DNA from: Flavobacteriales bacterium
Lineage (GTDB): Bacteria; Bacteroidota; Bacteroidia; Flavobacteriales; Flavobacteriaceae
Direction: 5' to 3'
NCBI GenBank assembly: GCA_027023475.1
Contig: JALVVJ010000019.1
Span: forward strand, 1,459-65,458
Length of the DNA: 64,000 nt
Shown piece by piece: positions 3,757 to 62,905 of this stretch. A model generated the notes under the pieces. It did no database searches, was not told the DNA's origin, and saw nothing but the letters and a program-made list of their open reading frames with translations. Position numbers and translations under genes: made by a program. Position 1 is the first letter of the stretch. Every line of letters starts with the position of its first letter.

Positions 3757-3769
3757 TTTAGTTGTTCAG

Positions 3770-4389
3770 GCGTTCCGGGAACCTGCGGCTTCCTTAGGCC
3801 TGGCTATATGCCGCGCCTTGTTTCCCTTCACGGCTCCCGACATTGCTATGCAATGTGCGGGACAAGTTCCACAATCCCTCGGGGCGCCGGCGGCGGAATG
3901 AAAATTCCGCTGCCGGCGGCGCAAATGATATCGGGGCGGCGAGTTTTAATCTGAGAAACCCGGTAAAATACCACCTCGACCGTAGAATTCCTCCTTTGTT
4001 TTGCGCCGCCCGGCCCCGCGCCTTCGGCGCGGGGCCGGCGCCCCTTGTCTTGTTCCGCGGCTTCGCGAACCGCCTTGTGGCGTTTCGCTTCGCGGGCCTC
4101 GGAACCCTTCGGTTTCCTCGGCGGCTCCGGGAACCTGCGGCTTCCAATGACCAACGCCACAGGCCGCACCTTGTTTCCCTTCGCACCTTCGGGAGCCGGC
4201 GCGTTCCGCCTTCGGCTCCACGCTTGTCTCCCTACGGGCTCCACAAGCCGGCGCTTCGCCTGCGGCTTCGCTTGTCTTGTTCCGCAGCTACGGCAGCCAC
4301 CTACGGTGTCTGCCTTCGCCACCGCGTCAGCCCTGCGGTCTGCCGCGGGCTCCGCGAGCCCTCCGGTCTCGCTCCGCTACAATTTTTTT
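3770..4389 (+). repeat. Family-B GC-rich composite repeat, copy B1
   Basis: Aligns along its length with B6 (52005..52585) and the reverse complement of B5 (45176..45772). Hairpin 1 is at 3883..3922 and hairpin 2 at 4010..4038, followed by a tail of degenerate CTTGTCTCCCT / GCTTCGC / CCTGCGG units. Boundaries are approximate. Confidence 0.85.
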
Positions 4390-4440
4390 CGGAATGAGAA
4401 CACCGATTAACGATTAATCGATTTAAGATTTCCGAATTTT

Positions 4441-4788
4441 TCAAATCGCTAATCGATGTTCAAATGTTAGGTGTTCATTATTCGAGCGCCGGTCCCTGAG
4501 TGATTTTTGCGTAGCAAAAATTGTATCGAAGGGACGGCGCGCAACAAGCGCCAGGGATGGGAGCGGTTATGAGCCGAAGGGCTGCCCGAGCATTTTCCCG
4601 CAGGCGGAGGCCGACAGCGTGAGGCCCCACGCACCGCGGTGGCGCGAAGCGCCTAAATGCCGGTGCAGCCCGAGGTGAATTTGAGCGGACAGCCCGGTTC
4701 CCGCCTCGTGAACACGTCGCAGGACAAACAACGTGCAGGCCTGCGGCTGTGTGAACGAGTGCGGGAAGGCGCCCAAATAAAAAACACG
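4441..4788 (+). repeat. Family-A GC-rich structured repeat, copy A1 (core 4548..4788, extended left arm shared with A3)
   Basis: Core begins GCGCCAGGGATGGGAGCGGTTATG and ends GGCGCCCAAATAAAAAACAC. Two GTGAAC boxes bracket the hairpin 4716-4723/4740-4747. The left arm AAATCGCTAATCG...ATTCGAG-hairpin also occurs next to A3. Confidence 0.85.
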
Positions 4789-4815
4789 GTCTATAACCAC
4801 AACTTTGAAAACAAC

Positions 4816-12291: not shown

Positions 12292-12789
12292 ATGACACAA
12301 GTAAACTTTAAAGGTCAAGCCGTTCGTTTGGCCAGGAATATGCCCGCTGTTGGAAGTCCGGCACCCGAATTTTTGCTTACCGGAACCGATTTGCAGGACA
12401 AAAAGTTGAGCGATTTCCGCGGTTCAACGCTTATCCTTAATGTTTTTCCCAGTTTGGATACGCCGGTCTGTGCCGCTTCGGTGCGCCGTTTCAATACTTT
12501 GGCCTCGGGCATGGATAATGTGAAAGTCTTGGCCATTTCGCGTGACTTGCCCTTTGCCCATGCCCGTTTTTGTTCCACCGAAGGCATTGAAAACGTGATT
12601 AATCTTTCGGATTACAAGACCTGTAATTTCGGCAAGGACTATGGCTTGGAAATTACCGAAGGACCTTTGGAAAAACTACTGGCTCGCGCCGTATTTATTA
12701 TCGACCCGCAGGGCAAAATTACTTACGTCCAATTGGTTCCCGAAATTACCGAAGAACCCGACTACGAAGATGTATTGAAACATTTGTAG
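12292..12789 (+). CDS. tpx: Thiol peroxidase (Tpx-type peroxiredoxin)
   Basis: Trimmed to ATG 12292 (MTQVNFKGQAV...). FPSLDTPVCAASVRRFN contains the peroxidatic Cys context of Tpx. Confidence 0.85.
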   Translation: MTQVNFKGQAVRLARNMPAVGSPAPEFLLTGTDLQDKKLSDFRGSTLILNVFPSLDTPVCAASVRRFNTLASGMDNVKVLAISRDLPFAHARFCSTEGIENVINLSDYKTCNFGKDYGLEITEGPLEKLLARAVFIIDPQGKITYVQLVPEITEEPDYEDVLKHL

Positions 12790-12828
12790 GATTTCCTTAC
12801 ATTTAGGTGGGAATAAAAAATCGGAATC

Positions 12829-13431
12829 ATGCGTTTGATGATCATAGCAGGCGGGATGCGTCATCCGTCGGGTAGCGGACGTGCCGCGGCATTTATACGT
12901 CAAAAAGCCGGAAAACTAAGTTTATTCGACCCAATCGACCTGCTGGATTTGGGGCAAAATCCCTTGCCGCTATGGGACGAAGGTGTTTGGCAAGGCGAAG
13001 AAAAATGGAGACAAATACTCACACCCCTGCGCGAACGTATGCAAGCGGCCGATGCCTATGTGCTCGTGTCGCCCGAGTACAACGGCATGGCTTCGCCGGC
13101 ATTGAAAAACCTGAGCTTGTTTTTCGACGAAAGAACCACCGGACACAAACCCGCTCTTATCGTTGCCGTAACTTCCGAAGCCCACAACGGCCAATATCCC
13201 GTGGCCGACTTGCGCGCCTTCGGCGCCAAAAATACCAAGTGGGTGTTTATTCCCGACCATCTAATTTACCGCAATATCGGACGGTTGATTAGCGAAAACC
13301 TACAAATGACCGATGCTTTGCTCGAAGAACAAACCTTGTTCAGCTTGCGGGAATTACGGCTATATGCCGAAGCGATGAAGGAAGTGCAAAACCGGCACAG
13401 ATTCCGTCCCGAATTCAAATATGCTCCCTAA
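12829..13431 (+). CDS. NADPH-dependent FMN reductase family protein
   Basis: The SPEYNGMASPALKN motif and flavodoxin-like length. The family is recalled, not searched. Confidence 0.7.
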   Translation: MRLMIIAGGMRHPSGSGRAAAFIRQKAGKLSLFDPIDLLDLGQNPLPLWDEGVWQGEEKWRQILTPLRERMQAADAYVLVSPEYNGMASPALKNLSLFFDERTTGHKPALIVAVTSEAHNGQYPVADLRAFGAKNTKWVFIPDHLIYRNIGRLISENLQMTDALLEEQTLFSLRELRLYAEAMKEVQNRHRFRPEFKYAP

Positions 13432-13432
13432 A

Positions 13433-14389
13433 TCAGAAACTGAGTTCCGCTTCGGGATAAAGATTTTTTTGCAAGCCCGAGAGCATGGCGCGCACCATAG
13501 CATCCAAATCGTAGCGGTGTTGCCACTGCCAATCCCTGCGGGCGGCACTGTCGTCGATGCTATCGGGCCAAGTGCGGGCAATATCCTCACGGAAATCGGG
13601 TGCATAATCCACTTGAAAGTCCGGCACATAGCGCCGGATGGCCGCTTCCAATTCGCGCGGCGTAAAACTGACGGCCGCCAAATTGTAGGACGAACGGATA
13701 TTTAAGCCGGCGGCCGGTGCATCCATCAGTCGCACCGTGGCATCGATGGCATCGTCGATATACATCATGGGCAAACGTTCATCAGGCGCGATATAGCAAG
13801 TATAGGGTTCACCGCGCAGGGCGTAATGAAACATTTCCACGGCATAATCGGTGGTGCCTCCGCCCGGCCGGGTTTTCCAACTGATGATGCCCGGATATCG
13901 CACACTACGCACATCCAAGCCGTATTTTTCGTAGTAATATTCCATCCAGCGTTCGCCGGCCAGTTTACTGATGCCATACACCGTATCCGGGTCCATCACC
14001 GTGTATTGCGGCGTGTTTTCCTTGGGCGTATGCGGACCGAAAACCGCAATGGAACTGGGCCAAAATAATTTGTGGTACAATCCTTCGCGACCCAATTCCA
14101 ACAAGTTGTGCAAAATACGCATATTCACATGCCATGCCTTTCGCGGCATCTGTTCGGCACGGGCCGAAAGGATGGCGGCCATCAGGTAAACATCATCGAT
14201 GCGGTAACGTTCAAACACGGCACGCAATGCATCCGTATCCGTTGCATCCAAAAGGACAAACTGCTTGTCGGCCTCATCTTTACGGACAATATCCGCTGCC
14301 AGAACTTGTTCATACCCAAAACGTTTTTCCAAAAGCTGCCGCAATTCCGTTCCGATTTGTCCGTTGGAACCGATGATGAACTTTTTCAT
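13433..14389 (-). CDS. NAD-dependent epimerase/dehydratase family protein (L-threonine 3-dehydrogenase-like SDR)
   Basis: N-terminal IIGSNGQIG Rossmann motif, 318 aa, extended-SDR pattern. Confidence 0.7.
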   Translation of the reverse strand: MKKFIIGSNGQIGTELRQLLEKRFGYEQVLAADIVRKDEADKQFVLLDATDTDALRAVFERYRIDDVYLMAAILSARAEQMPRKAWHVNMRILHNLLELGREGLYHKLFWPSSIAVFGPHTPKENTPQYTVMDPDTVYGISKLAGERWMEYYYEKYGLDVRSVRYPGIISWKTRPGGGTTDYAVEMFHYALRGEPYTCYIAPDERLPMMYIDDAIDATVRLMDAPAAGLNIRSSYNLAAVSFTPRELEAAIRRYVPDFQVDYAPDFREDIARTWPDSIDDSAARRDWQWQHRYDLDAMVRAMLSGLQKNLYPEAELSF

Positions 14390-14512
14390 ACCTGCATTTT
14401 ACGGCCCTAAAATACAACTTTCGCCTCGAATAAATCCGCCAAAGGTCAATTTTTGGTGGATGTTCCGAAAACCTGTGGGCACCCTGAAAATCAGAATAAA
14501 CAACCGCCCGAA

Positions 14513-15589
14513 TTAAACCTCGATGTCCTGGGCTTTGAGTTTTTCGGTGTTGTCGGCAATGCGCAGCGCTTCGATAATTTTGTCCAAATCGCCGTTAAGG
14601 ATATTCTGCAAGTCGTAGAGTGTCAATCCAATACGATGGTCGGTAACGCGGCCTTGCGGAAAATTGTAGGTGCGGATTTTGGCCGAACGGTCGCCACTGC
14701 TCACCATGGAACGGCGTTTTTGGGCCTCGGCCTCCTTGCGTTTGCGTAATTCCATTTCGTAGAGCCGTGAACGCAACACGCGCAGGGCTTTTTCGAAATT
14801 TTTGTGTTGGGATTTTTGGTCCTGGCATTGGGCGGTGATACCCGTGGGAATGTGTGTGAGCCGTACCGCCGAATAGGTGGTGTTCACCGACTGTCCACCC
14901 GGGCCGGACGACATGAACAAGTCCTTGCGGATGTCCTTCATGTTGATTTCCACGTCGAACTCCTCGGCCTCGGGGAGCACCATCACCGTGGCGGCGGAAG
15001 TGTGCACGCGACCCTGAGTTTCGGTTTGCGGAACGCGCTGAACACGATGCACGCCGGCCTCGTATTTCAGGGTGCCGTAAACATCGGTGCCCGAAATGTT
15101 GAAAATAATTTCCTTGAAACCGCCTGCGGGGCCTTCGTTGTAATCCACAATTTCGGTTTTCCACCCCTTTTTTTCGGCATATTTGGTGTACATACGAAAC
15201 AGGTCGCCGGCAAACAGGGCGGCTTCGTCGCCACCGGTACCGGCGCGTATTTCCACCACGGCATTCTTGGCATCCTCGGGGTCTTTGGGAATGAGCAACA
15301 GCTTAATTTCCTCGGCGGTTTTTTCCAGTTGCGGTTCCAAATCGGCCAGCTCCTCTTTGGCCATTTCCACCAATTCCTTGTCGGCTTCGGTGCGCAAAAC
15401 TTCTTTGGCCTCGTCCATCCGCGCGGCAAGTAATTCGTAGGCCTCGATTTTTTCTACCAGCGGTTTGAGTTCTTTATATTCCTTGCTGATTTTGACATAC
15501 TGCTTTTGGTCGGCCATAACAGCCGGATCCGCCAGTTTGTCGGAAATATCGCGAAAGCGTTGTTTGATAAGGGGAAATTTATCCTTCAT
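14513..15589 (-). CDS. prfA: Peptide chain release factor 1
   Basis: [10 protein letters not shown] (GGQ) and the [14 protein letters not shown] region (RF1-type tripeptide context). Trimmed to ATG 15589, because a terminator hairpin occupies 15623..15645. Confidence 0.9.
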
Positions 15590-15616
15590 TCCCGGGAAGA
15601 TTATGTGCAAAAGTAA

Positions 15617-15645
15617 CAAAAAAGCCGCAGCCCGGGGCTGCGGCT
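15617..15645 (-). terminator. Intrinsic terminator after gldN
   Basis: Minus strand reads AGCCGCAGC-CCCGG-GCTGCGGCT (9-bp stem) followed by TTTTTTG. It lies between the gldN stop (15668) and the prfA start. Confidence 0.7.
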
Positions 15646-15667
15646 TGGGATATGATTACAGGTTGTG

Positions 15668-16555
15668 TTAGTAATTCCACTGGTCTTCCTCGTAATCGCG
15701 AATCATTTCCTTGATGCGGTTGGATTCGAGGAGTTGACGCAAAGCGTTTTCATGAATATATTCACGTATGCTGCGGTCGCCGTATTCGTTACTTGTTTTG
15801 TAGATAATCGTATTGAAAAAGCGTCCGTTGAGCAAGTGGTCGTAGTTCATGGGGCGTGCCGCATTGCGCGGATTGTAGGCATAGTAGTTATGCAGGGTTT
15901 CGCGCGCATCGGGGAAAAACACCCAAAACAGTTCCACCAACTCGGCATCCATACCGGCAGCCACCGAAGCCAAGTCGTAGGCCACGGGCGCAATACCGAT
16001 AAGCCGGTAGCGCAATTCACCATAACGGGCATCGAAGTACCATACGCCGCGAACATGGTATTCTTCGATTTCGGCCGAAGTGATTTTCATCCGGCGAATA
16101 TATTGCTCGTCCACCTTGCCCTCGTAGTTATACTGCTCTATACCGGCGTCCATGGTGTCGGTAAAGGTCATACGCTCTTTGAGCATATCAGGCGTGAGCT
16201 TTTCGGTAAAATAGGTATCGGCATAAACCTCGGTGATTTTACCCGAATTGATACCCGACATTAGGGCATCGAACAGGGAAACCTGACCGGGCGTGGCCAA
16301 TGCCGTGTCCACCGGATAGTAAAGACGCAAATTGAAGCGTTCGTCCAGGTCGATTTTTTCCCATACCTGAATGCTCCACAACACGTCTTTGTCGTCCGTA
16401 AACGGATAGGGTAACGGACGGGAATGATCTTCCTTGATTTGCTGCGGCGTAGGGCGACCGATTTCTTGCGGCGTGTGCGCATTGAGAATATTGCTCTGCG
16501 CACTACCGATCACCGGCAACAGCATGAGGAAAACCAAAACAAACAACCTTTTCAT
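15668..16555 (-). CDS. gldN: Gliding motility / T9SS protein GldN (PorN)
   Basis: Signal peptide MKRLFVLVFLMLLPVIGSAQ. The sequence and its position directly after gldM match Bacteroidota gldKLMN operons. Confidence 0.85.
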   Translation of the reverse strand: MKRLFVLVFLMLLPVIGSAQSNILNAHTPQEIGRPTPQQIKEDHSRPLPYPFTDDKDVLWSIQVWEKIDLDERFNLRLYYPVDTALATPGQVSLFDALMSGINSGKITEVYADTYFTEKLTPDMLKERMTFTDTMDAGIEQYNYEGKVDEQYIRRMKITSAEIEEYHVRGVWYFDARYGELRYRLIGIAPVAYDLASVAAGMDAELVELFWVFFPDARETLHNYYAYNPRNAARPMNYDHLLNGRFFNTIIYKTSNEYGDRSIREYIHENALRQLLESNRIKEMIRDYEEDQWNY

Positions 16556-26917: not shown

Positions 26918-27007
26918 CCGCCACACTTTTTTCAGCACACAATTTAGCAAAAATATCCTCCCCTCTCCTACCGAAGATTTCAAACGTCGTCCGTTTATCC
27001 TTTTTTA

Positions 27008-27250
27008 TTTTTTTTGGGCGTGTCCCTCGCGCCCTTCGGGCGCTCGGGAAACCGGCCCTCCGCTACAATGGGAACGCCTTCGGGCTGCGCCCTCCGGCTC
27101 TCGGACGGGCGGTGTTTTTTGCGCGGGCTGCGTCTGCGACTTGCCCGCGCCCGCCCGTGCGTGGGGCTTCCACAGGTCGCCTCCGCCGGGCGGAAAAAAC
27201 TACCACCGCCCTTCGCCCCATTACCGCTCGGTCCGGCACGCGGAAAAACT
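27008..27250 (-). repeat. Family-A repeat, divergent copy A2
   Basis: Its reverse complement contains the family core TTTTCCGCCCGGCGGAGGCGACCTGTGGAAGCCCCACGCACGGGCGGGCGCGGGCAAGTCGCAGACGCAGCCCGCGCAAAAAA and ends in an A run. Both flanking parts diverge from the other copies. Confidence 0.75.
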
Positions 27251-34103: not shown

Positions 34104-34123
34104 GGCTTGGTATTTCGGCACAA

Positions 34124-34131
34124 CAAAGCTA
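34124..34131 (-). promoter_or_regulatory. Candidate -7 promoter box (TAGCTTTG) for the aminotransferase operon
   Basis: Plus-strand CAAAGCTA is minus-strand TAGCTTTG, 20 nt upstream of ATG 34103 and downstream of repeat A3. Confidence 0.45.
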
Positions 34132-34154
34132 CTAATTTTCGGGCATTGGCGGTT

Positions 34155-34484
34155 CCCGGTGTTTTTTTGTTTTGGGCGCCTGCCCGCACCCGTTCACACA
34201 GCCGCAGGCCTGCACGTTGTTTGTCCTGCGACGTGTTCACGGGCCGGCCACCGGGCTGTCCGCTTAAATTCGCCTTGGCTGCTCGCTGCTTTTGCGCGGG
34301 CGCGCGTGCCACGCGCCCGCGCCCGCCCGTGCGTGGGGCTTCCTGCCGGTCGCCTCCGCAGGGCGGAAAAGCATGCTCGCCGCCTACGGCTCATAACCGC
34401 TCCCATCCCTGGCGCGTTGGCTCGGGCGGCAAGCCGCCCTCGAATCAAGAACATCGAACAGATGATTAACGATTGGCGATTTGT
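34155..34484 (-). repeat. Family-A repeat, copy A3 (core 34155..34416 plus the extended arm shared with A1)
   Basis: The reverse complement starts CGCGCCAGGGATGGGAGCGGTTATG and ends GGCGCCCAAAACAAAAAAACAC. Its variable hairpin is identical to A1 and its central hairpin is lengthened. Confidence 0.85.
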
Positions 34485-34734
34485 CCTCTCCTAGTGAAAA
34501 TATTGAAGCAGGATGTCATTTCGAAGGAGTTCCCGAAGGGAACGACTGAGAAATCTCTACACGGGCAATTCATACAAGGGGGAATTCTACGTTCCTATTG
34601 TCCAATCCGCGAAGAGATTCCTTCCCGACCTTCGGTGCGGGACAGGCTGGCGTTTTACCTTGTTGTCGCCCGGCAATATTTTGTCGGAATGACATCACTC
34701 TCCTATTGTAAACATTGATGCAAGTCTGTCATTC
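34484..34734. repeat. Family-C inverted-pair repeat, locus C3
   Basis: Left unit 34515..34564 (GTCATTTCGA...GAGAAATCTCTACACGG) and inverted right unit 34607..34693 (...GAGATTCC...GTCGGAATGAC). Flanking direct repeats are of the TCCTATTGTAAACATTGA type. Confidence 0.8.
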
Positions 34735-34861
34735 AAACGACCAACCAATAAAAATAATTTATACGCTTGAAATGCCTTCCTCCATCAATTTTAGCCATGT
34801 TCTGCCTGTTTTTCAAAAATGATTATTTTTGGACAACTAAATATCCAAAACCCAATGTAGT

Positions 34862-38578: not shown

Positions 38579-38592
38579 GTCAAAAAGCGATG

Positions 38593-38600
38593 CAAATATA
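38593..38600 (-). promoter_or_regulatory. Candidate -7 promoter box (TATATTTG) for tRNA-Gln
   Basis: Plus-strand CAAATATA, 14 nt upstream of the mature tRNA 5' end. Confidence 0.45.
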
Positions 38601-38706
38601 TGAAATATTTTTCGGGAAAAACAAAGGGGGATTTTCGGATTTAGAAGGCGGTTGATGCTAAGGACGGCCATTGCTACGATTGTTCAAATGGTTAGCAAAA
38701 AAAAAT

Positions 38707-38958
38707 CGCGCCAGGGATGGGAGCGGTTATGCGGAGACGTCGGCGAGCATGCTTTTCCGCCCGGTGGAGGCTGACAGTGGGAAGCCCTACGCACGGGCGG
38801 GCGCGGGCAAGCCGCAGGCGCAGCCCGCGCAAAAAGCAGCGAGCCGACAAGCCGCATTTGAGCGGACAGCCCGGTCCCGCCTCGTGAACGCGTCGCCGGA
38901 TGAGCCACAGGCGAAAGCCGGCGGCAGTCGTGAACGAGTGCGGGAGGCGCCCTAAAAA
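38707..38958 (+). repeat. Family-A repeat, copy A4
   Basis: Runs from CGCGCCAGGGATGGGAGCGGTTATG to GTGAACGAGTGCGGGAGGCGCCCTAAAAATC. Central hairpin at 38801..38830 and variable hairpin at 38892-38899/38918-38925. Confidence 0.9.
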
Positions 38959-39005
38959 TCTTTTCCACGATTTGTCGTAATTTTACGCATTCGACCACTT
39001 ATGGT

Positions 39006-42973: not shown

Positions 42974-43059
42974 TTTTGCTATAAAAGTTACATCCGTTTT
43001 TCGGTTTCAATAATTTGAAATAAATTTATTCCAAATATATAAACAAAAAACGCATAGCT

Positions 43060-43662
43060 ATGAAAAAGAAATGGATTTTACCGCTCGTTCTGATGCTTTT
43101 TGCCTATTCGTTGGCCAATGCACAGGATTTTCGTATCGGGCTTTCCTTGGCGCCCAGCATCAACTTCAACAAGGGGTTTGTCAAGGTAAACGGTAATTTT
43201 GTCCAAGTGGATTCGCTCAAAAGCGGCGGTTTGGGCTTCAAAGGCGGCCTTTGGGCCGATTACGGCTTTGCCAAAAACTATTACCTGCATTCGGGCATTA
43301 TGATTCACAGCCGTAATTTCAAATCGGATTTTTCCAATATGAAAATCACCACGGTGGAAGTGCCCTTGGCCCTCAAAATGCGTAGCAATGAAGTGGCCGA
43401 CAATATTCGTATTTTGGGCTTTTTCGGCGCCACGCTCGACATCAACGTAACGGCCAAAAGCGGTAGTGTGGTTATTACCGACCAGGTGAACAAAATCGGT
43501 TCGTCCTTGATTTTCGGTGCCGGTGCCGAATACAATGTGGGCTTTGGCAACATCAATCTCGGACTCTCCTATCATTTGGGTATGACCGACGTGATGAACT
43601 CATCGCTTATCCGTCAAATGCCGCGCCACTTGTCCGTTGATTTCACCTTCTACTTTAATTAA
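43060..43662 (+). CDS. Small outer-membrane beta-barrel protein (porin-family/OmpW-like)
   Basis: Signal peptide MKKKWILPLVLMLFAYSLANAQ, alternating hydrophobic beta-strand pattern, C-terminal aromatic ...FTFYFN. Confidence 0.7.
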   Translation: MKKKWILPLVLMLFAYSLANAQDFRIGLSLAPSINFNKGFVKVNGNFVQVDSLKSGGLGFKGGLWADYGFAKNYYLHSGIMIHSRNFKSDFSNMKITTVEVPLALKMRSNEVADNIRILGFFGATLDINVTAKSGSVVITDQVNKIGSSLIFGAGAEYNVGFGNINLGLSYHLGMTDVMNSSLIRQMPRHLSVDFTFYFN

Positions 43663-43672
43663 AACGGACGCA

Positions 43673-44560
43673 TTATTTCAACGTATGTAAACGCGACGTC
43701 CGGGCAAAGCCGTTTTCCCAGGCGTCGCCGTTATTTTGCAGTATTTCCGGCACATTGCGAACGGTATATATGTGCGGGTCGTTCAAGTTGCGCAGCTGTT
43801 CCCAGCTAAGCGGCATAGACACCGACGCCACGGGCGTTGCCCGTGTGCCATAGGGCATGCTGAACGTTTGAAAGGCACGGTTACGGTAAATATCAATCAA
43901 GAATTTGCCACGTCGCTTGTCTTTGCGTACATCCAGGGTGGAACCGGGAAAAGCGCGCATAATCTCCCTTGCAACACTTTCGGCTGCTTCCATCACTTGG
44001 TCCACCGTGTAGGCGGGTTCCAAAGGACAAACAATGTGCACACCCCGCTTGCCCGAAGTTTTGACCAGCGTAGTGTAGCCCAATTTTTCGATCACCGGCC
44101 GTATGCCTAGGGCAAAATCACGGATTTCTTCAAAACCGGCCCCGTCGGGCGGGTCGATGTCGAACACCATCAGGTCGGGATTGGCCCAATGCGGCTTGCA
44201 GATGCCCATCACGTGGAATTCCAAAGCGTGCAATTGCACCAACCATATCAGGTCGGCCACCTGTTCCAATACCACATAACGGGTGGGTTTGAATTTGCCC
44301 ATTTCGCGAATTTCCACAAAGGACGGCACCGGATCGGGTGCATTTTTTTGAAAAAACGAATATCCGGGCGCCCCGTGCGGATAACGGACAAATACCAAGG
44401 GCCTTCCGCGATTATAGCGTAGGATGTAAGGCGCCACGGCCAAATAATAATCCATCAATTCCCGCTTGGTGATGCCCGTTTGCGGGAAAAGCGGTTTATC
44501 GGGATGCGTAATTCGCAGTTCAAAACCATCAACACGAAGGATTTGCTCGTGAGCATCCAT
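43673..44560 (-). CDS. LigD-type NHEJ polymerase/primase domain protein (stand-alone PolDom)
   Basis: The N-terminus LRVDGFELRITHPDKPLFPQTGITKRELMDYY and the LVFDIDPP-like MVFDIDPPDG and KTSGKRGVHI motifs are typical of LigD PolDom (AEP primase fold). Confidence 0.8.
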   Translation of the reverse strand: MDAHEQILRVDGFELRITHPDKPLFPQTGITKRELMDYYLAVAPYILRYNRGRPLVFVRYPHGAPGYSFFQKNAPDPVPSFVEIREMGKFKPTRYVVLEQVADLIWLVQLHALEFHVMGICKPHWANPDLMVFDIDPPDGAGFEEIRDFALGIRPVIEKLGYTTLVKTSGKRGVHIVCPLEPAYTVDQVMEAAESVAREIMRAFPGSTLDVRKDKRRGKFLIDIYRNRAFQTFSMPYGTRATPVASVSMPLSWEQLRNLNDPHIYTVRNVPEILQNNGDAWENGFARTSRLHTLK

Positions 44561-44608
44561 AGCCGGTGTTTTGTTTTCAAGTTACGGATATTTCCGGTAA
44601 AATAAAAT

Positions 44609-44867
44609 GTTTTTTGGGCGCCCCGCCGCACACGTTCACGCATCGGCGGTTGCTTCAAGGCGACGGAGCGCTTTCGCACCCGCCGCGTTCACGTGGCGCC
44701 GTCGGGCTGTCCGCTCAAATGCGGCTTGCCGGCTCGCTGCTTTTTGCGCGGGCTGCGCCTGCGCTTGCCCGCGCCCGCCCGTGCGTGGGGCTTCCTTCGG
44801 TCGCCTCCGCCGGACGGAAAAGCATCCTCGCCGCCTTCACCGCATAACCGCTCCCATCCCTGGCGCG
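44609..44867 (-). repeat. Family-A repeat, copy A5
   Basis: The reverse complement runs from CGCGCCAGGGATGGGAGCGGTTATGCGG to GTGAACGTGTGCGGCGGGGCGCCCAAAAAACA. Its variable hairpin has a CGGCGG/CCGCCG stem. Confidence 0.9.
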
Positions 44868-44968
44868 ATAATAAGGTGCGCGCGATAAATCGCTTTTCCC
44901 GCGCGATAAATCGCGCGGCTACAATGATACATCCGGCCTTGGTTGAAGCGTTCGGGTTTATGATTAAT

Positions 44969-45175
44969 GTCCTACTGTAAACATTGAAGGCAAATGTCAT
45001 TCCGACAGAGCCGCGTAGCGGCGACGAGGAATCTCTACACGGATACTCCATTCGGGGCGGAATATTAGATTCCTATTGTCTAATCCGTGATGAGATTCCT
45101 CGGCGTTTTACCTCGCTTACGCTCGGCAAAACTTTGTCGGAATGACATCGATCTCCTATTGCAAACATTGAAGGC
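44969..45175. repeat. Family-C inverted-pair repeat, locus C5
   Basis: Left unit 44996..45042 (GTCATTCCGACAGAGCCGCGTAGCGGCGACGAGGAATCTCTACACGG) and inverted right unit 45085..45146. TCCTAYTGYAAACATTGAAGG direct repeats sit at both ends. Confidence 0.85.
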
Positions 45176-45772
45176 GAAACCGAACAGCGGGTTCGCCGCT
45201 TCCCGAGGAGACCAAAGGGCTCCGAGGGCCGCAAGGAGACACCGCAGGTGGCTCCGAAGCACACGGAGCAAGACCGGAGGCGAAGCGAAGCGGCGCCGGA
45301 AGGGCTTGCGGAGTTGCGAAGGGAGACAAGCGCGAAGCCGCAGGCGGAGCGTGCCGGCTCCCTGAGCCGCGAAGGCAGACCGCAGGGCTGCCGGAGTGCC
45401 GGAGGGAGACAAAGCGCGGGCTTGGCATCAGCCGCTTGGCAGCCGAAGGATCCCGGAGGGCGGAACAAGACAAGGGGCGCCGGCCCGCGCCAAAGGCGCG
45501 GGCCGGGCGGCGCAAAAAAACGGTGGATTTTATTCGCTAAACCCAAAACAAATCATCGATGGCCGCAACAATCCATTTTCCGGAATAAGTTTTGCGCCGC
45601 CGGCAGCGGAATTTCATTCCGCCGCCGGCGCCCTGACGGCTTGTGGAGCCGTGGAGCAAGACCCGCAGGGGCTTGCGGAACCGCATAACTTGTCCCGTAT
45701 ATTGCCTGGCAATGTCAGGGAAACAAGGCGCAGCCCTTGGCGTAGGCCTATGGAAGCCGTATGTTCCCGAAG
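45176..45772 (-). repeat. Family-B repeat, copy B5
   Basis: The reverse complement aligns with B1 from TTCGGGAACATACGGCTTCC through hairpin 1 (45594..45632) and hairpin 2 (45480..45506) to the CTTGTCTCC/GCTTCGC tail. Confidence 0.85.
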
Positions 45773-45889
45773 CAAGTCAAAATTTAGTGGTTTTTAACGG
45801 AAAAATCATTGATCAGTCGAGTTGTCCTTCCGTCGTATTTAACTTTGGCAAGATTTTTGCTTCGGTTTTACAAAACCCAAGGATTAACC

Positions 45890-46243
45890 ATGCGCGACGA
45901 TCATGTTTTTACTACGCAAAAAAGTAAAGAAGCAACCGATTTTGATGCGAAACAAAAATTGATGCAACAAAGTTGGCGTTTGCAAAGTATTTACGAAACG
46001 GGATTGGTGCCCGATGTGGCCCGATACCGGGATGTGGAAGTGGTTTTCGGGCCGATGCATATTTATGCCCTCTATGGCAGCCGGGCCGAACGGTTTTCCT
46101 ATCGTTTCCTGTCGCCGCGCGTGTTTGAAGTGGTGATCAACAACATTCCCTTCCGCTGCCGCATCAGCCGCTTGACCGACACCGAACTCCGTTTCCACGC
46201 CGATGCACCCGAACATCATTTTATCATCGAAATGCGCCGGTAA
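45890..46243 (+). CDS. Hypothetical protein
   Basis: The track ORF starts at TTG 45809. ATG 45890 (MRDDHVFTT...) is preferred. No recognised motifs. The 3' end overlaps the convergent neighbour by 28 nt. Confidence 0.45.
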   Translation: MRDDHVFTTQKSKEATDFDAKQKLMQQSWRLQSIYETGLVPDVARYRDVEVVFGPMHIYALYGSRAERFSYRFLSPRVFEVVINNIPFRCRISRLTDTELRFHADAPEHHFIIEMRR

Positions 46244-51968: not shown

Positions 51969-51999
51969 AATCCCGGCCTTTGTGTGCCGGGATTTTTTT
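51969..51999 (+). terminator. Intrinsic terminator after secDF
   Basis: AATCCCGGC-CTTTGTGT-GCCGGGATT (9-bp stem) followed by TTTTTTA. Confidence 0.75.
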
Positions 52000-52004
52000 A
52001 TGAC

Positions 52005-52585
52005 GCTCCGGAACCGCTACGCGTTTCCTACGCGGCTCCGCAAGCCGTCAGGGCGCCGGCGGCGGAATGGAATTCCGCTGCCGGCGGCGCAAAATTTTGC
52101 GGCCATTGACAACAAATGATTTAAAGTTTCGACTACGCCATTCCCGGAAAACCCTGCCGGGATTTTGCGCCGCCGGCCCCGCGCGTGAGCGCGGGGCCAG
52201 CGCCCTTTGTCTTGCTACGCTGCTTCGGAAACCTCGTATGTTTGTAGCATGAAAAATTTTATAATTTTGTTCACATCCGATGCAAAAAGGAAAGAAGGTA
52301 AGAAATCTGGGAAACCTTGGTACGTACAAAACGATACCGTAGCGCAGAATGTATTCTTACCTTCTTTCTGCGCTTCCAAAGCCCAACGCCCGGGCCGCGC
52401 TTGTTTTCCTTCGCACCTCGGGGAACCCGCACGCTCCGCCTGCGACTCCGCGTTTGTCTCCCCTCGGGCTTCGCAAGCCCTTCCGGCTTCGCTTCGCTGT
52501 GCCGCAGGTCTTGCTTCGCGTGCTGCGGAGCCACACTGCCTCCCGACAAGTTCTGCTACGCCATGGCAGCGGTCTCCGCAGACAG
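52005..52585 (+). repeat. Family-B repeat, copy B6 (with a nested AT-rich insertion at about 52225..52372)
   Basis: Hairpin 1 at 52052..52090 and hairpin 2 at 52175..52198 (GTGA loop). The tail is of the CGCGTTTGTCTCCCCTCGGGCTTCGCAAGCCC... type and aligns with B1 and B5. Confidence 0.85.
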
Positions 52586-57639: not shown

Positions 57640-57909
57640 TTATTTACGCAATCCGAGTTCTTTGATGATTTTTCGATAACGTTCGATGTCCACTTTTTTG
57701 AGGTAGTCCAGGTGTCGCCGGCGCTTGCCAACCAGTTTGATCAACGCCCGCTCCGTACTGTAATCGTGCTTGTGCTTTTTGAGATGTTCGGTCAGGTGTT
57801 GAATGCGGTAGGTAAACAACGCGATTTGTGCTTCCGGCGATCCGGTGTCCTTTTCGGATTTGCCGTACTTCTTGAAGAATTCTTTTTTGATTTCAGGTGT
57901 CAAATACAT
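57640..57909 (-). CDS. rpsO: 30S ribosomal protein S15
   Basis: Trimmed to ATG 57909 ([44 protein letters not shown]...), canonical S15. Confidence 0.95.
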
Positions 57910-57948
57910 GCCAATATTTTTTAAATGATTTTTATGTATTGCAGTGTG

Positions 57949-57956
57949 CAAAGATA
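57949..57956 (-). promoter_or_regulatory. Candidate -7 promoter box (TATCTTTG) for rpsO
   Basis: Plus-strand CAAAGATA, 39 nt upstream of ATG 57909. Confidence 0.4.
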
Positions 57957-62241: not shown

Positions 62242-62366
62242 GTGATAGGAGCTCTACGAACAGTGTTTCAAAGGCGTTAGCCACCAAAGAGAAAGGAAAT
62301 TTTACATCCGGCCAACGGTTTAATTTTACTCGTACTTTGTATAATCACTCAGCATCCGGCAATCTC

Positions 62367-62791
62367 CGCGCCAGGGATGGGAGCGGTTATGCGGTGCTGG
62401 CGGCGAGCATGCTTTTCCGCCCGGAGGAGGCGACCGAAGGAAGCCCTACGCACGGGCGGGCGCGGGCAAGCGTAGGCGCAGCCCGCGCAAAAAGCAGCGA
62501 GCCGGCAAGCCGCATTCGAGCGGACAGCCCGGCGGCTGCCGCGTGAGGAACAGCCGGCGTGAGCGTGCTCCGTCATCGCGAAACGACGGCTGAGGCGCCG
62601 CCGCGGCGCGCAGCAGCGCGCCGGGCGGATGGCCGGACGTAAACGATTGTAAATCAGCGAAACGCCCCGGCCCCGCGGCGAAGCCGCGGGGCCGGGGCCG
62701 ACGATAAATCCGCTTCCGCGTCCGGCCATCCGCCGCGGGCTTCCGCCCGCCGGCGGCGCCCCGAACGCCGGCAGCCGGGCGCCCAAAAAAA
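62367..62791 (+). repeat. Family-A repeat, long variant A7
   Basis: The 5' two thirds are like A4/A5. The 3' part is replaced by a chain of GC hairpins: 62605..62622, a 16-bp inverted repeat at 62624-62639/62719-62734, and an enclosed 16-bp hairpin at 62664..62698. It ends GGGCGCCCAAAAAAA. Confidence 0.85.
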
Positions 62792-62905
62792 TTACCGGCA
62801 CCTATTCATCCCGACCACGTAAACATTACACCGGAAAATTTCATTCCCGGTAGACAATATGTTGTAAGGAAAGATATGTGCCGCATTTACACATCAAAAA
62901 AATTG

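Follow-up and report, generated by a model that had tools for sequence, protein, structure and literature searches.

How does one intergenic stretch of a very compact genome come to hold three repeat families side by side, and why do the repeats of that genome crowd into so few spaces? The stretch is 44561–45889 of a 64,000-nucleotide window (the whole piece of DNA that was analysed, C19:1459–65458) from a Flavobacteriales bacterium represented by a short-read metagenome-assembled genome (MAG) of 2.29 Mb in 197 contigs, with a GC content of 48.8% (hereafter G000). An earlier note had described it as a mosaic of separate repeat families A, B and C with a palindromic linker, and had offered two origins, the nesting of mobile elements or the assembly of larger functional units from modules. 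We find that the families, far from being independent units, are modules of a single collinear composite, and that they co-occur in the same spaces because they are joined in one fixed order and orientation. The segment 44610–45780 is the fullest version of this composite, and the composite system occurs only in one subclade of a Flavobacteriales genus that is uncultured. The reading that we favor, and regard as probable, is that of a modular, non-coding and selfish repeat system of the kind represented by BOX elements and bacterial interspersed mosaic elements (BIMEs), with its fullest copy at 44610–45780 and reshuffled at conserved cores.

One composite, in one order and orientation

Every part of 44604–45780 has between 13 and 150 look-alikes elsewhere in the genome, and the following features can be recognized along the stretch (window coordinates, strand, description).

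44561..44609, minus strand: unique sequence upstream of the gene for the LigD primase-polymerase (start codon ATG at 44560); repeat depth 1–2
44610..44622, plus strand: T1 terminus, a T-run then GGGCGCC; the outer end of A and of the whole composite
44616..44866, plus strand: module A (251 nt), with a three-way structure (nhmmer, predicted folding)
44704..44723, plus strand: K1 core GGGCTGTCCGCTCAAATGCG, the 5' half of a conserved interrupted helix; 179 copies, invariant in the alignment
44843..44866, plus strand: T2 terminus CATAACCGCTCCCATCCCTGGCGC, which ends A and supplies the 3' half of the conserved helix; 178 copies in G000
44867..44929, plus strand: hairpin linker with two copies of GCGCGATAAATCGC (44880–44893 and 44901–44914)
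44930..44971, plus strand: module L (CATCCGGCCTTGGTTGAAGCGTTCGGGTTTATGATTAATGT), a connector for which N is the alternative (adjacency counts)
44972..44990, plus strand: J1, 19-nt junction motif CTACTGTAAACATTGAAGG (motif listing)
44991..45155, plus strand: module C, a 165-nt palindromic doublet TGTCATTCCGACA ... TGTCGGAATGACA, flanked by the direct copies J1 and J2
45156..45174, plus strand: J2, second copy of the junction motif, CTATTGCAAACATTGAAGG
45175..45518, plus strand: module B1, a GAAACCG..CGGGTTCGCC hairpin, variable purine-rich mini-hairpin units GGAGACCnnAGGGCTCC, and a 12–13 bp GC hairpin then an A-run
45519..45589, plus strand: AT-rich spacer between B1 and B2, repeated along with both (depth about 31–47)
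45590..45780, plus strand: module B2, hairpin TTTTGCGCCGCCGGCAGCGGAATTTCATTCCGCCGCCGGCGCC then tail units (100 nhmmer matches)
45781..45889, plus strand: unique upstream region of a 117-amino acid gene starting at 45890; depth 1

What had been called a palindromic linker thus resolves into two GCGCGATAAATCGC hairpins followed by module L and then the 19-nt junction motif; GCGCGATAAATCGC itself occurs 127 times, always between T2 and either L or N.

The order of the modules was read in two ways. First, profile searches (nhmmer) with seeds from the stretch matched A 193 times, the linker/L 60 times, C 51 times, B1 145 times and B2 100 times, and when neighbouring matches no more than 150 nt apart are taken as adjacencies, all 213 adjacencies in the genome are co-oriented and 203 of them follow the order A > L > (C) > B1 > B2. 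The counts are 44 for A-L, 29 for L-B1, 15 for L-C, 15 for C-B1, 28 for B1-B1 and 53 for B1-B2, with a further 10 for A-C and 9 for A-B1 at a spacing of about 80 nt. Secondly, the islands were read as strings of short anchor motifs, which give the composite as T1 K1 T2, the GCGCGATAAATCGC hairpins, L or N, J, an optional C plus J, and then either B1/B2 or a tail, P, that ends in an inverted T1. The simplest islands are the 65 with a solo A (T1 K1 T2), and solo P-T1' and solo B2 islands occur too; the string of 44610–45780 is the longest and occurs once only. The composite also recurs as a unit, with contig C152 85% identical over 546 nt from A through C, and the other multi-family spaces of the window, 3757–4815 (B1 + A1) and 34104–34861 (A3 + C3), have the same module order, each on its own strand. 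Variants of B1 have compensatory changes, and in the copy at 4036–4302 the B1 units are spaced 62–101 nt apart.

The adjacencies bear out the modular half of the earlier proposal, and nesting holds for C only (see below). Its suggestion that the larger units are functional finds no support here: the patchy spread, the wide range of copy number and the lack of gene-orientation bias point to selfish DNA instead.

A coding explanation was considered and rejected. The stretch contains five open reading frames of 110–157 codons, none of which has a Pfam match, and the spacing of the B1 units does not run in steps of three. No Rfam 15 family matches any module at gathering or E-value thresholds, the best score in 44500–45950 being 23.6 bits against a threshold of 40, and the stretch is not enriched in promoter-like or terminator-like sites. 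The only Rfam matches in the window are a tRNA and an S15-Flavobacteria ribosomal-protein leader at 57907–57956 (minus strand, 60.6 bits), in which the hairpin of the Rfam model is deleted and only the flanking conserved stretches align.

Repeat islands across the genome

Repeat islands were defined as segments with a depth of at least 5 in a self-BLAST of the whole assembly. Within the window they lie at 3774–4783, 27006–27243, 34164–34718, 38699–38960, 44604–45687, 51994–52234 plus 52405–52532, and 62364–62794, which places them in exactly the seven intergenic spaces that the earlier note had named as holding all of the window's repeats. Its estimate of about 4 kb, or some 6% of the window, agrees with the measured 3949 nt (6.2%), and the GC contrast that it pointed to is present as well, with a GC content of 0.58–0.73 for the window repeats versus 0.488 for the genome. 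Genome-wide there are 381 islands totalling 149 kb, or 6.5% of the assembly, with a mean GC content of 0.61. They occupy 243 of the 1730 interior intergenic spaces (about 14%), and these spaces have a median length of 545 nt, of which only about 125 nt is non-repeat, compared to 27 nt for all others.

The clustering seen in the window extends to the genome, where 84 spaces contain two or more families and 31 (range 18–47) are expected under independent placement of the families. A and B1 occur together in 38 spaces versus 4.6 expected (p = 5e-30), and within island spaces J and C share 27 versus 10 expected, and B1 and B2 share 25 versus 7.7; B1/B2 and the tail P are mutually exclusive. The clustering is neither chance nor random nesting. 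Islands are found in 24.5% of the spaces between convergent genes, 19% of those between divergent genes and 10% of those between co-directional genes, and the repeats have no genome-wide orientation bias towards the flanking genes. A role for A as a leader or riboswitch, which was entertained as five of the six A copies in the window face a gene start, was set aside, since over the whole genome only 64 of 148 T1 ends point to a gene start, the other 84 pointing to a gene end.

Patchy distribution and remodelling at orthologous sites

Among the ten genomes of the genus, three to five are carriers: A-like sequence is abundant in G003, G006 and G009, only traces of it occur in G002 and G007, and G001, G004, G005 and G008 have none. 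Nor is it present in 31 genomes of other genera and families. The T2 motif is absent from about 398 other genomes sampled in the order, with the exception of one genus of another family. In this second family a 19-nt core is found in 7 of 151 genomes, in 27, 6, 4, 3, 2, 1 and 1 copies, and the copies have the same T1, K1 and T2 framework with a different inner sequence and no J or B modules nearby. A spread as patchy and as variable in copy number as this is typical of mobile DNA.

Orthologous sites in G000, G003 and G009 provide a view of how the islands change. At the tRNA-Gln site (window 38579–39005) the flanks and the 3' half of A are kept in both G009 and G003, with a different 320-nt 5' module in G003 and an extra L and J on the tRNA-facing side in the G009 contig. 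At C70:16062 the element immediately follows the upstream gene's terminator in each of the three genomes; it is a solo A in G000, an A with another 5' module and 920 nt more in G003, and only the last 19 nt of T2 in G009. We note that this G009 relic adjoins a 1.1 kb AT-rich insertion with an open reading frame (L080 = G009:C131:10600–12200, at about 270–1380). The presence of copies at the same sites in three genomes shows that the islands predate the split of these species and were then remodelled in place. Segments that are 95–99% identical between different loci start and end at T1, K1, T2 or J, which means that whole modules are exchanged.

On the ligD side of the stretch, collinearity with G009 and G003 extends as far as window 44623/44631, and the islands upstream of ligD in those two genomes likewise start with T1 about 55 nt from ligD, and the modules and the next gene differ. 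In the repeat-free G005 a 592-amino acid gene, which we take to be uvrC-like, overlaps ligD by 4 nt (L003 4627–7298). In the repeat-poor G002, ligD and the 117-amino acid gene are also neighbours, in the other orientation, which supports the join in the window being real. The ligD gene itself (window 43673–44560, minus strand) encodes a stand-alone LigD primase-polymerase domain, and its upstream neighbour differs in each of G000, G009 and G003. A more extensive difference in gene order is seen in G009 contig C125, in which segments that in G000 lie on contigs C70, C19 (twice) and C146 follow one another, every joint being occupied by a repeat island; these joints reflect either recombination between dispersed repeats or short-read mis-joins. 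The C125 segments (G009:C125:1–12000 and 12382–15755) are 97% identical to C70:21556–26628, window 44623–42056, C146:1–2713 and window 62242–58866.

Two side observations concern these sequences. Short contigs of the MAG (C143, C109 and about 40 others) are 80–93% identical to parts of longer contigs (e.g. C143:1–1592 to window 43034–44622), which indicates that the bin also contains another, related strain or species. The motif TTCGGCACAACAAA (window 44574–44603 and 34104–34150; L070 2560–2640) is kept about 15–30 nt upstream of an aminotransferase start (ATG at window 34103, minus strand) in G000 and G009, and beyond it the sequences differ; it is probably the promoter region of the aminotransferase gene, with islands beginning just outside it.

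Module A and the case for a structured RNA

The 65 solo copies of A are 178–567 nt long, with clean ends, TTTTnGGGCGCC ... CATAACCGCTCCCATCCCTGGCGC, and unrelated T-rich flanks. The termini of A are TTTTnGGGCGCC and CCCTGGCGC, the former opening 158 copies with unrelated flanks. A T-run precedes GGGCGCC in 86–100% of A copies, most of those T's having been demanded by the search motif itself, and about nine of the 65 solo copies (counted by eye) adjoin a terminator hairpin and its T-run. The inverted ends of A are only 5–6 bp (GGCGCC/GGCGC), and composites ending in P carry a 12-nt T1/T1' pair (TTTTnGGGCGCC and its inverse). The predicted architecture is identical in every A copy folded, and consists of a closing helix (GGCGCC/GGCGC), at least one variable 5' hairpin, and a K1/T2 helix capped by a variable stem. 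The K1/T2 helix has invariant symmetric internal loops (GGA/GGA and GGUU/UUGA on the GCGCCAGGG strand), and the stems are replaced by unrelated yet still pairing sequences. Given this conserved fold of A, the GC contrast may also mark a structural RNA, as the earlier note hinted.

A single three-way predicted fold throughout, with loops held invariant and stems swapped yet pairing, is what would be anticipated if the modules, and above all A, were transcribed structured RNAs or cis-acting structures under selection, and the composite one long multi-domain RNA; they may then act as 3'-end protectors, as insulators between convergent genes, or as protein-binding platforms. This is the best of the alternatives, and we regard it as a possible but unlikely one. 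It draws further support from covariation in the first pairs of the variable stem, which are GC in 15 copies and CG in 11 (there is none in the invariant parts of A), from the orthologous copies kept since three species split, from conservation of the core in the second family, and from the fixed co-orientation of the modules, which suggests that one strand matters. Which strand that would be is less clear: the A copy of the stretch folds more stably on the reverse strand (z = -2.87) than on the forward strand (z = -1.52), and the reverse strand is the more stable in 77% of 146 copies, but G-U pairs are commoner on the worse-folding forward strand (913 vs 459), such that the strand evidence is contradictory. 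Moreover, a copy number that ranges from 0 to about 180 within one genus is the pattern of a mobile element and not that of a needed RNA, and the lack of gene-orientation bias, of promoter-like or terminator-like excess and of any Rfam match likewise counts against an RNA role.

The junction motif J and the insertion-like module C

The junction motif J (CTAYTGYAAACATTGAAGG) is present in about 103 copies at no more than two mismatches of a 21-mer, and its partners mix freely: to its left are L, N, the end of C, or members of an AT-rich H/CACAGAGT family, and to its right B1, C, P or others. Outside this lineage J has essentially single matches only, which are probably due to chance. We note that a separate AT-rich repeat family of CACAGAGT/ACTCTGTG units also bears J (e.g. 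G009:C125 5100–5560; G000 C5:20159, C180:71112 and C146), and J is thus common to GC-rich and AT-rich modules. In every case a direct copy of J stands on either side of C. The segment C119:6275–6669 is 98% identical to 44603–44994 over A, the linker, L and J, lacks C and the second J, and is 88% identical beyond J; C plus one J therefore behaves as an insertion at J. C is the only module that looks like an insertion, and J is also a boundary of recent sequence exchange.

This arrangement raises the prospect of cassette exchange, an 'integron of hairpins', with the A core (closing helix and K1/T2 helix with its invariant loops) as the recognition structure of an undescribed mobilization or recombination system, J as a site-specific recombination core, and either a host enzyme or an unseen one, in place of any known transposase, carrying out the exchange. 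The location of C between two direct copies of J and the interchangeable partners of J would fit such a system, but no tyrosine recombinase gene was found beyond two of the Xer-like type, which relatives without the repeats have as well; we consider it quite doubtful.

The 98%-identical copy without C, and the occurrence of solo A, solo P-T1' and solo B2 islands, could also be accounted for if the families were independent mobile elements, i.e. nested miniature inverted-repeat transposable elements (MITEs), inserting into or beside one another, with the hot spots as insertion pile-ups. Random nesting, however, predicts all four orientation combinations and interrupted copies, and none of the 213 adjacencies is opposed, with 203 in one order; target duplications are lacking, and composites recur as units, as on C152. 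The repeats described here resemble known MITEs, such as the Correia elements of Neisseria and Nezha of cyanobacteria, in being non-autonomous, structured, intergenic, patchy and variable in copy number, with short inverted termini, but they differ in having no target duplication, in not being AT-rich, in having no parent insertion sequence (IS) with matching ends, and in their interchangeable inner modules. Independent insertion is an improbable explanation overall.

Search for a mobilizing enzyme

A number of observations weigh against a selfish repeat system, and these are gathered here. First, none of the enzymes sought tracks the repeats. Genes of the Y1_Tnp/RAYT family (PF01797) are lacking in G000, G003, G006 and G009, and the sole match in the genus is in the repeat-free G005, the MAGs of the genus that were searched for RAYT being 88–96% complete; TnpB was not found in any repeat-rich genome; only two Xer-like tyrosine recombinase genes are present, as is the case in repeat-free relatives; and a single reverse transcriptase gene occurs whether or not a genome carries the repeats. 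Secondly, there is no sign of target-site duplication, with the longest match between left and right flanks averaging 4.56 nt for real pairs and the same 4.56 nt after shuffling (sd 0.10). Thirdly, clean empty sites are lacking in relatives, in that each orthologous site examined contains the element, a variant or a relic. Fourthly, the invariant purine-rich loops, the GNRA-type loops on one strand, and the presence of the A core in two families would fit a functional RNA or a protein-binding structure equally well. Finally, all of the genomes are short-read MAGs that break at repeats, and the joins that span islands, especially those in C125, could be partly chimeric.

Other searches were also negative. 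In the second family, Y1 genes are neither flanked by the element nor track its copy number. No multi-copy sequence of at least 600 nt that might represent a parent IS is present in the assembly, except for strain-variant contigs, and this is weak evidence as MAGs often lose IS copies. There are no presence/absence variants among the strain-variant contigs of the MAG. The open reading frame with a reverse transcriptase domain is 787 amino acids long (G000:C106:8786–9415 and G009:C12:1699–2328) and may be of the defence type.

Comparison with known repeat systems

Repetitive extragenic palindromic (REP) sequences and their composites, the BIMEs and the REP doublets forming hairpins (REPINs), are known in enterobacteria, Pseudomonas and Stenotrophomonas, and are similar to the system described here in several respects: both are high-copy, extragenic, GC-rich hairpins that form mosaic arrays containing linker motifs, are overrepresented between convergent genes and have no target duplications. 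A REP unit is a 20–40 bp imperfect palindrome, and the gene for its REP-associated tyrosine transposase (RAYT) is typically flanked by repeats. Neighbouring REPs in BIMEs alternate in orientation (PMC2817692), and one end of a REP has a GTAG or CGTC tetranucleotide (PMC3733652). In contrast, the units here are far larger (178–567 nt) with several helices, only sub-parts such as GCGCGATAAATCGC reaching REP size; the modules are co-oriented and not alternating, and there is no GTAG/CGTC head. The abundance of the copies, their extragenic and mosaic-clustered occurrence without target duplication, their GC-rich hairpins, and their position beside a short T-rich motif would all suit either a REP/BIME or REPIN moved by a RAYT (Y1) enzyme or an element derived from IS200/IS605, of the palindrome-associated transposable element (PATE) type, which inserts 3' of a short specific motif, has no inverted repeats or duplication, and has hairpins close to its ends. 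However, neither Y1 TnpA nor TnpB is encoded in the repeat-rich genomes and the Y1 genes of the second family do not track the element, and we think this origin very unlikely.

The notion that the mosaic and its hot spots are artefacts of short-read assembly, i.e. chimeric joins across dispersed repeats, seems the least probable of all. In its favor, the MAG is in 197 contigs with 40 of its 193 A copies at contig ends, the strain-variant contigs end exactly at repeat edges, and C125 unites segments of three G000 contigs at joints that are each marked by an island. Against it, dozens of loci, and three genomes that were assembled independently, have one and the same module order, ligD and the 117-amino acid gene are neighbours in G002, and both island flanks lie on single contigs in G003 and G009.

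In architecture the system is closest, by analogy, to streptococcal BOX, and in genomic behaviour to REP/BIME mosaics. BOX elements of Streptococcus pneumoniae and S. suis are composed of boxA, a variable number of boxB, and boxC, have no dedicated transposase known, and number some 100-plus copies for a genome size of about 2 Mb (PMC3049150). Like them, the system described here is a composite interspersed repeat, similar in copy number, with modules in fixed order and orientation, variable tandem internal modules and optional extras; both range from less than 100 to more than 600 nt, have tight predicted folding and lack a known dedicated transposase. Ordered terminal modules around a variable tandem middle, which characterize BOX, are found here as A > L/N > J > (C J) > B1(n) > B2. 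The likeness is architectural, and homology to boxA, boxB or boxC would not be anticipated given the different host phylum and GC content; module sizes and composition differ, the modules here being GC-rich versus neutral to AT-rich. In addition, A is a three-way unit of 180–570 nt with invariant loops, the 19-nt J links interchangeable partners, and the host belongs to the Flavobacteriales as opposed to the Firmicutes. BOX elements have been reported with terminal inverted repeats and target duplications, and no target duplication was found here.

On their defining tests, the system falls outside REP/RAYT elements, MITEs and IS200/IS605 derivatives. Taken with the conserved structured core in two families, this implies a partner, either a protein or a mechanism.

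A proposed model for a selfish composite

Under the favored reading, of a selfish modular repeat system, A would be the basic unit, settling beside T-runs that would often be the U-tract of a terminator. Longer composites would grow and shrink through recombination or gene conversion at the invariant cores, and C would enter at J in a cassette-like manner. The mover of A may be either missing from these incomplete assemblies or a host function. The hot spots would be the few spaces of a very compact genome that tolerate insertions, with the resident modules providing homology for further additions.

Implications

A compact genome with a median intergenic length of 27 nt and a repeat content of 6.5%, set beside repeat-free congeners, offers a natural contrast for examining how such repeats invade, persist in and reshape small genomes. 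Short-read assemblies of these uncultured Flavobacteriales are broken at the repeats and may be wrongly joined there, and islands are found where near-identical genomes differ in gene order; caution is therefore advisable when synteny or bin quality is judged in this group. Lastly, the conserved core of A leaves room for a role at the RNA level or in protein binding, and for an undescribed mechanism of mobilization.

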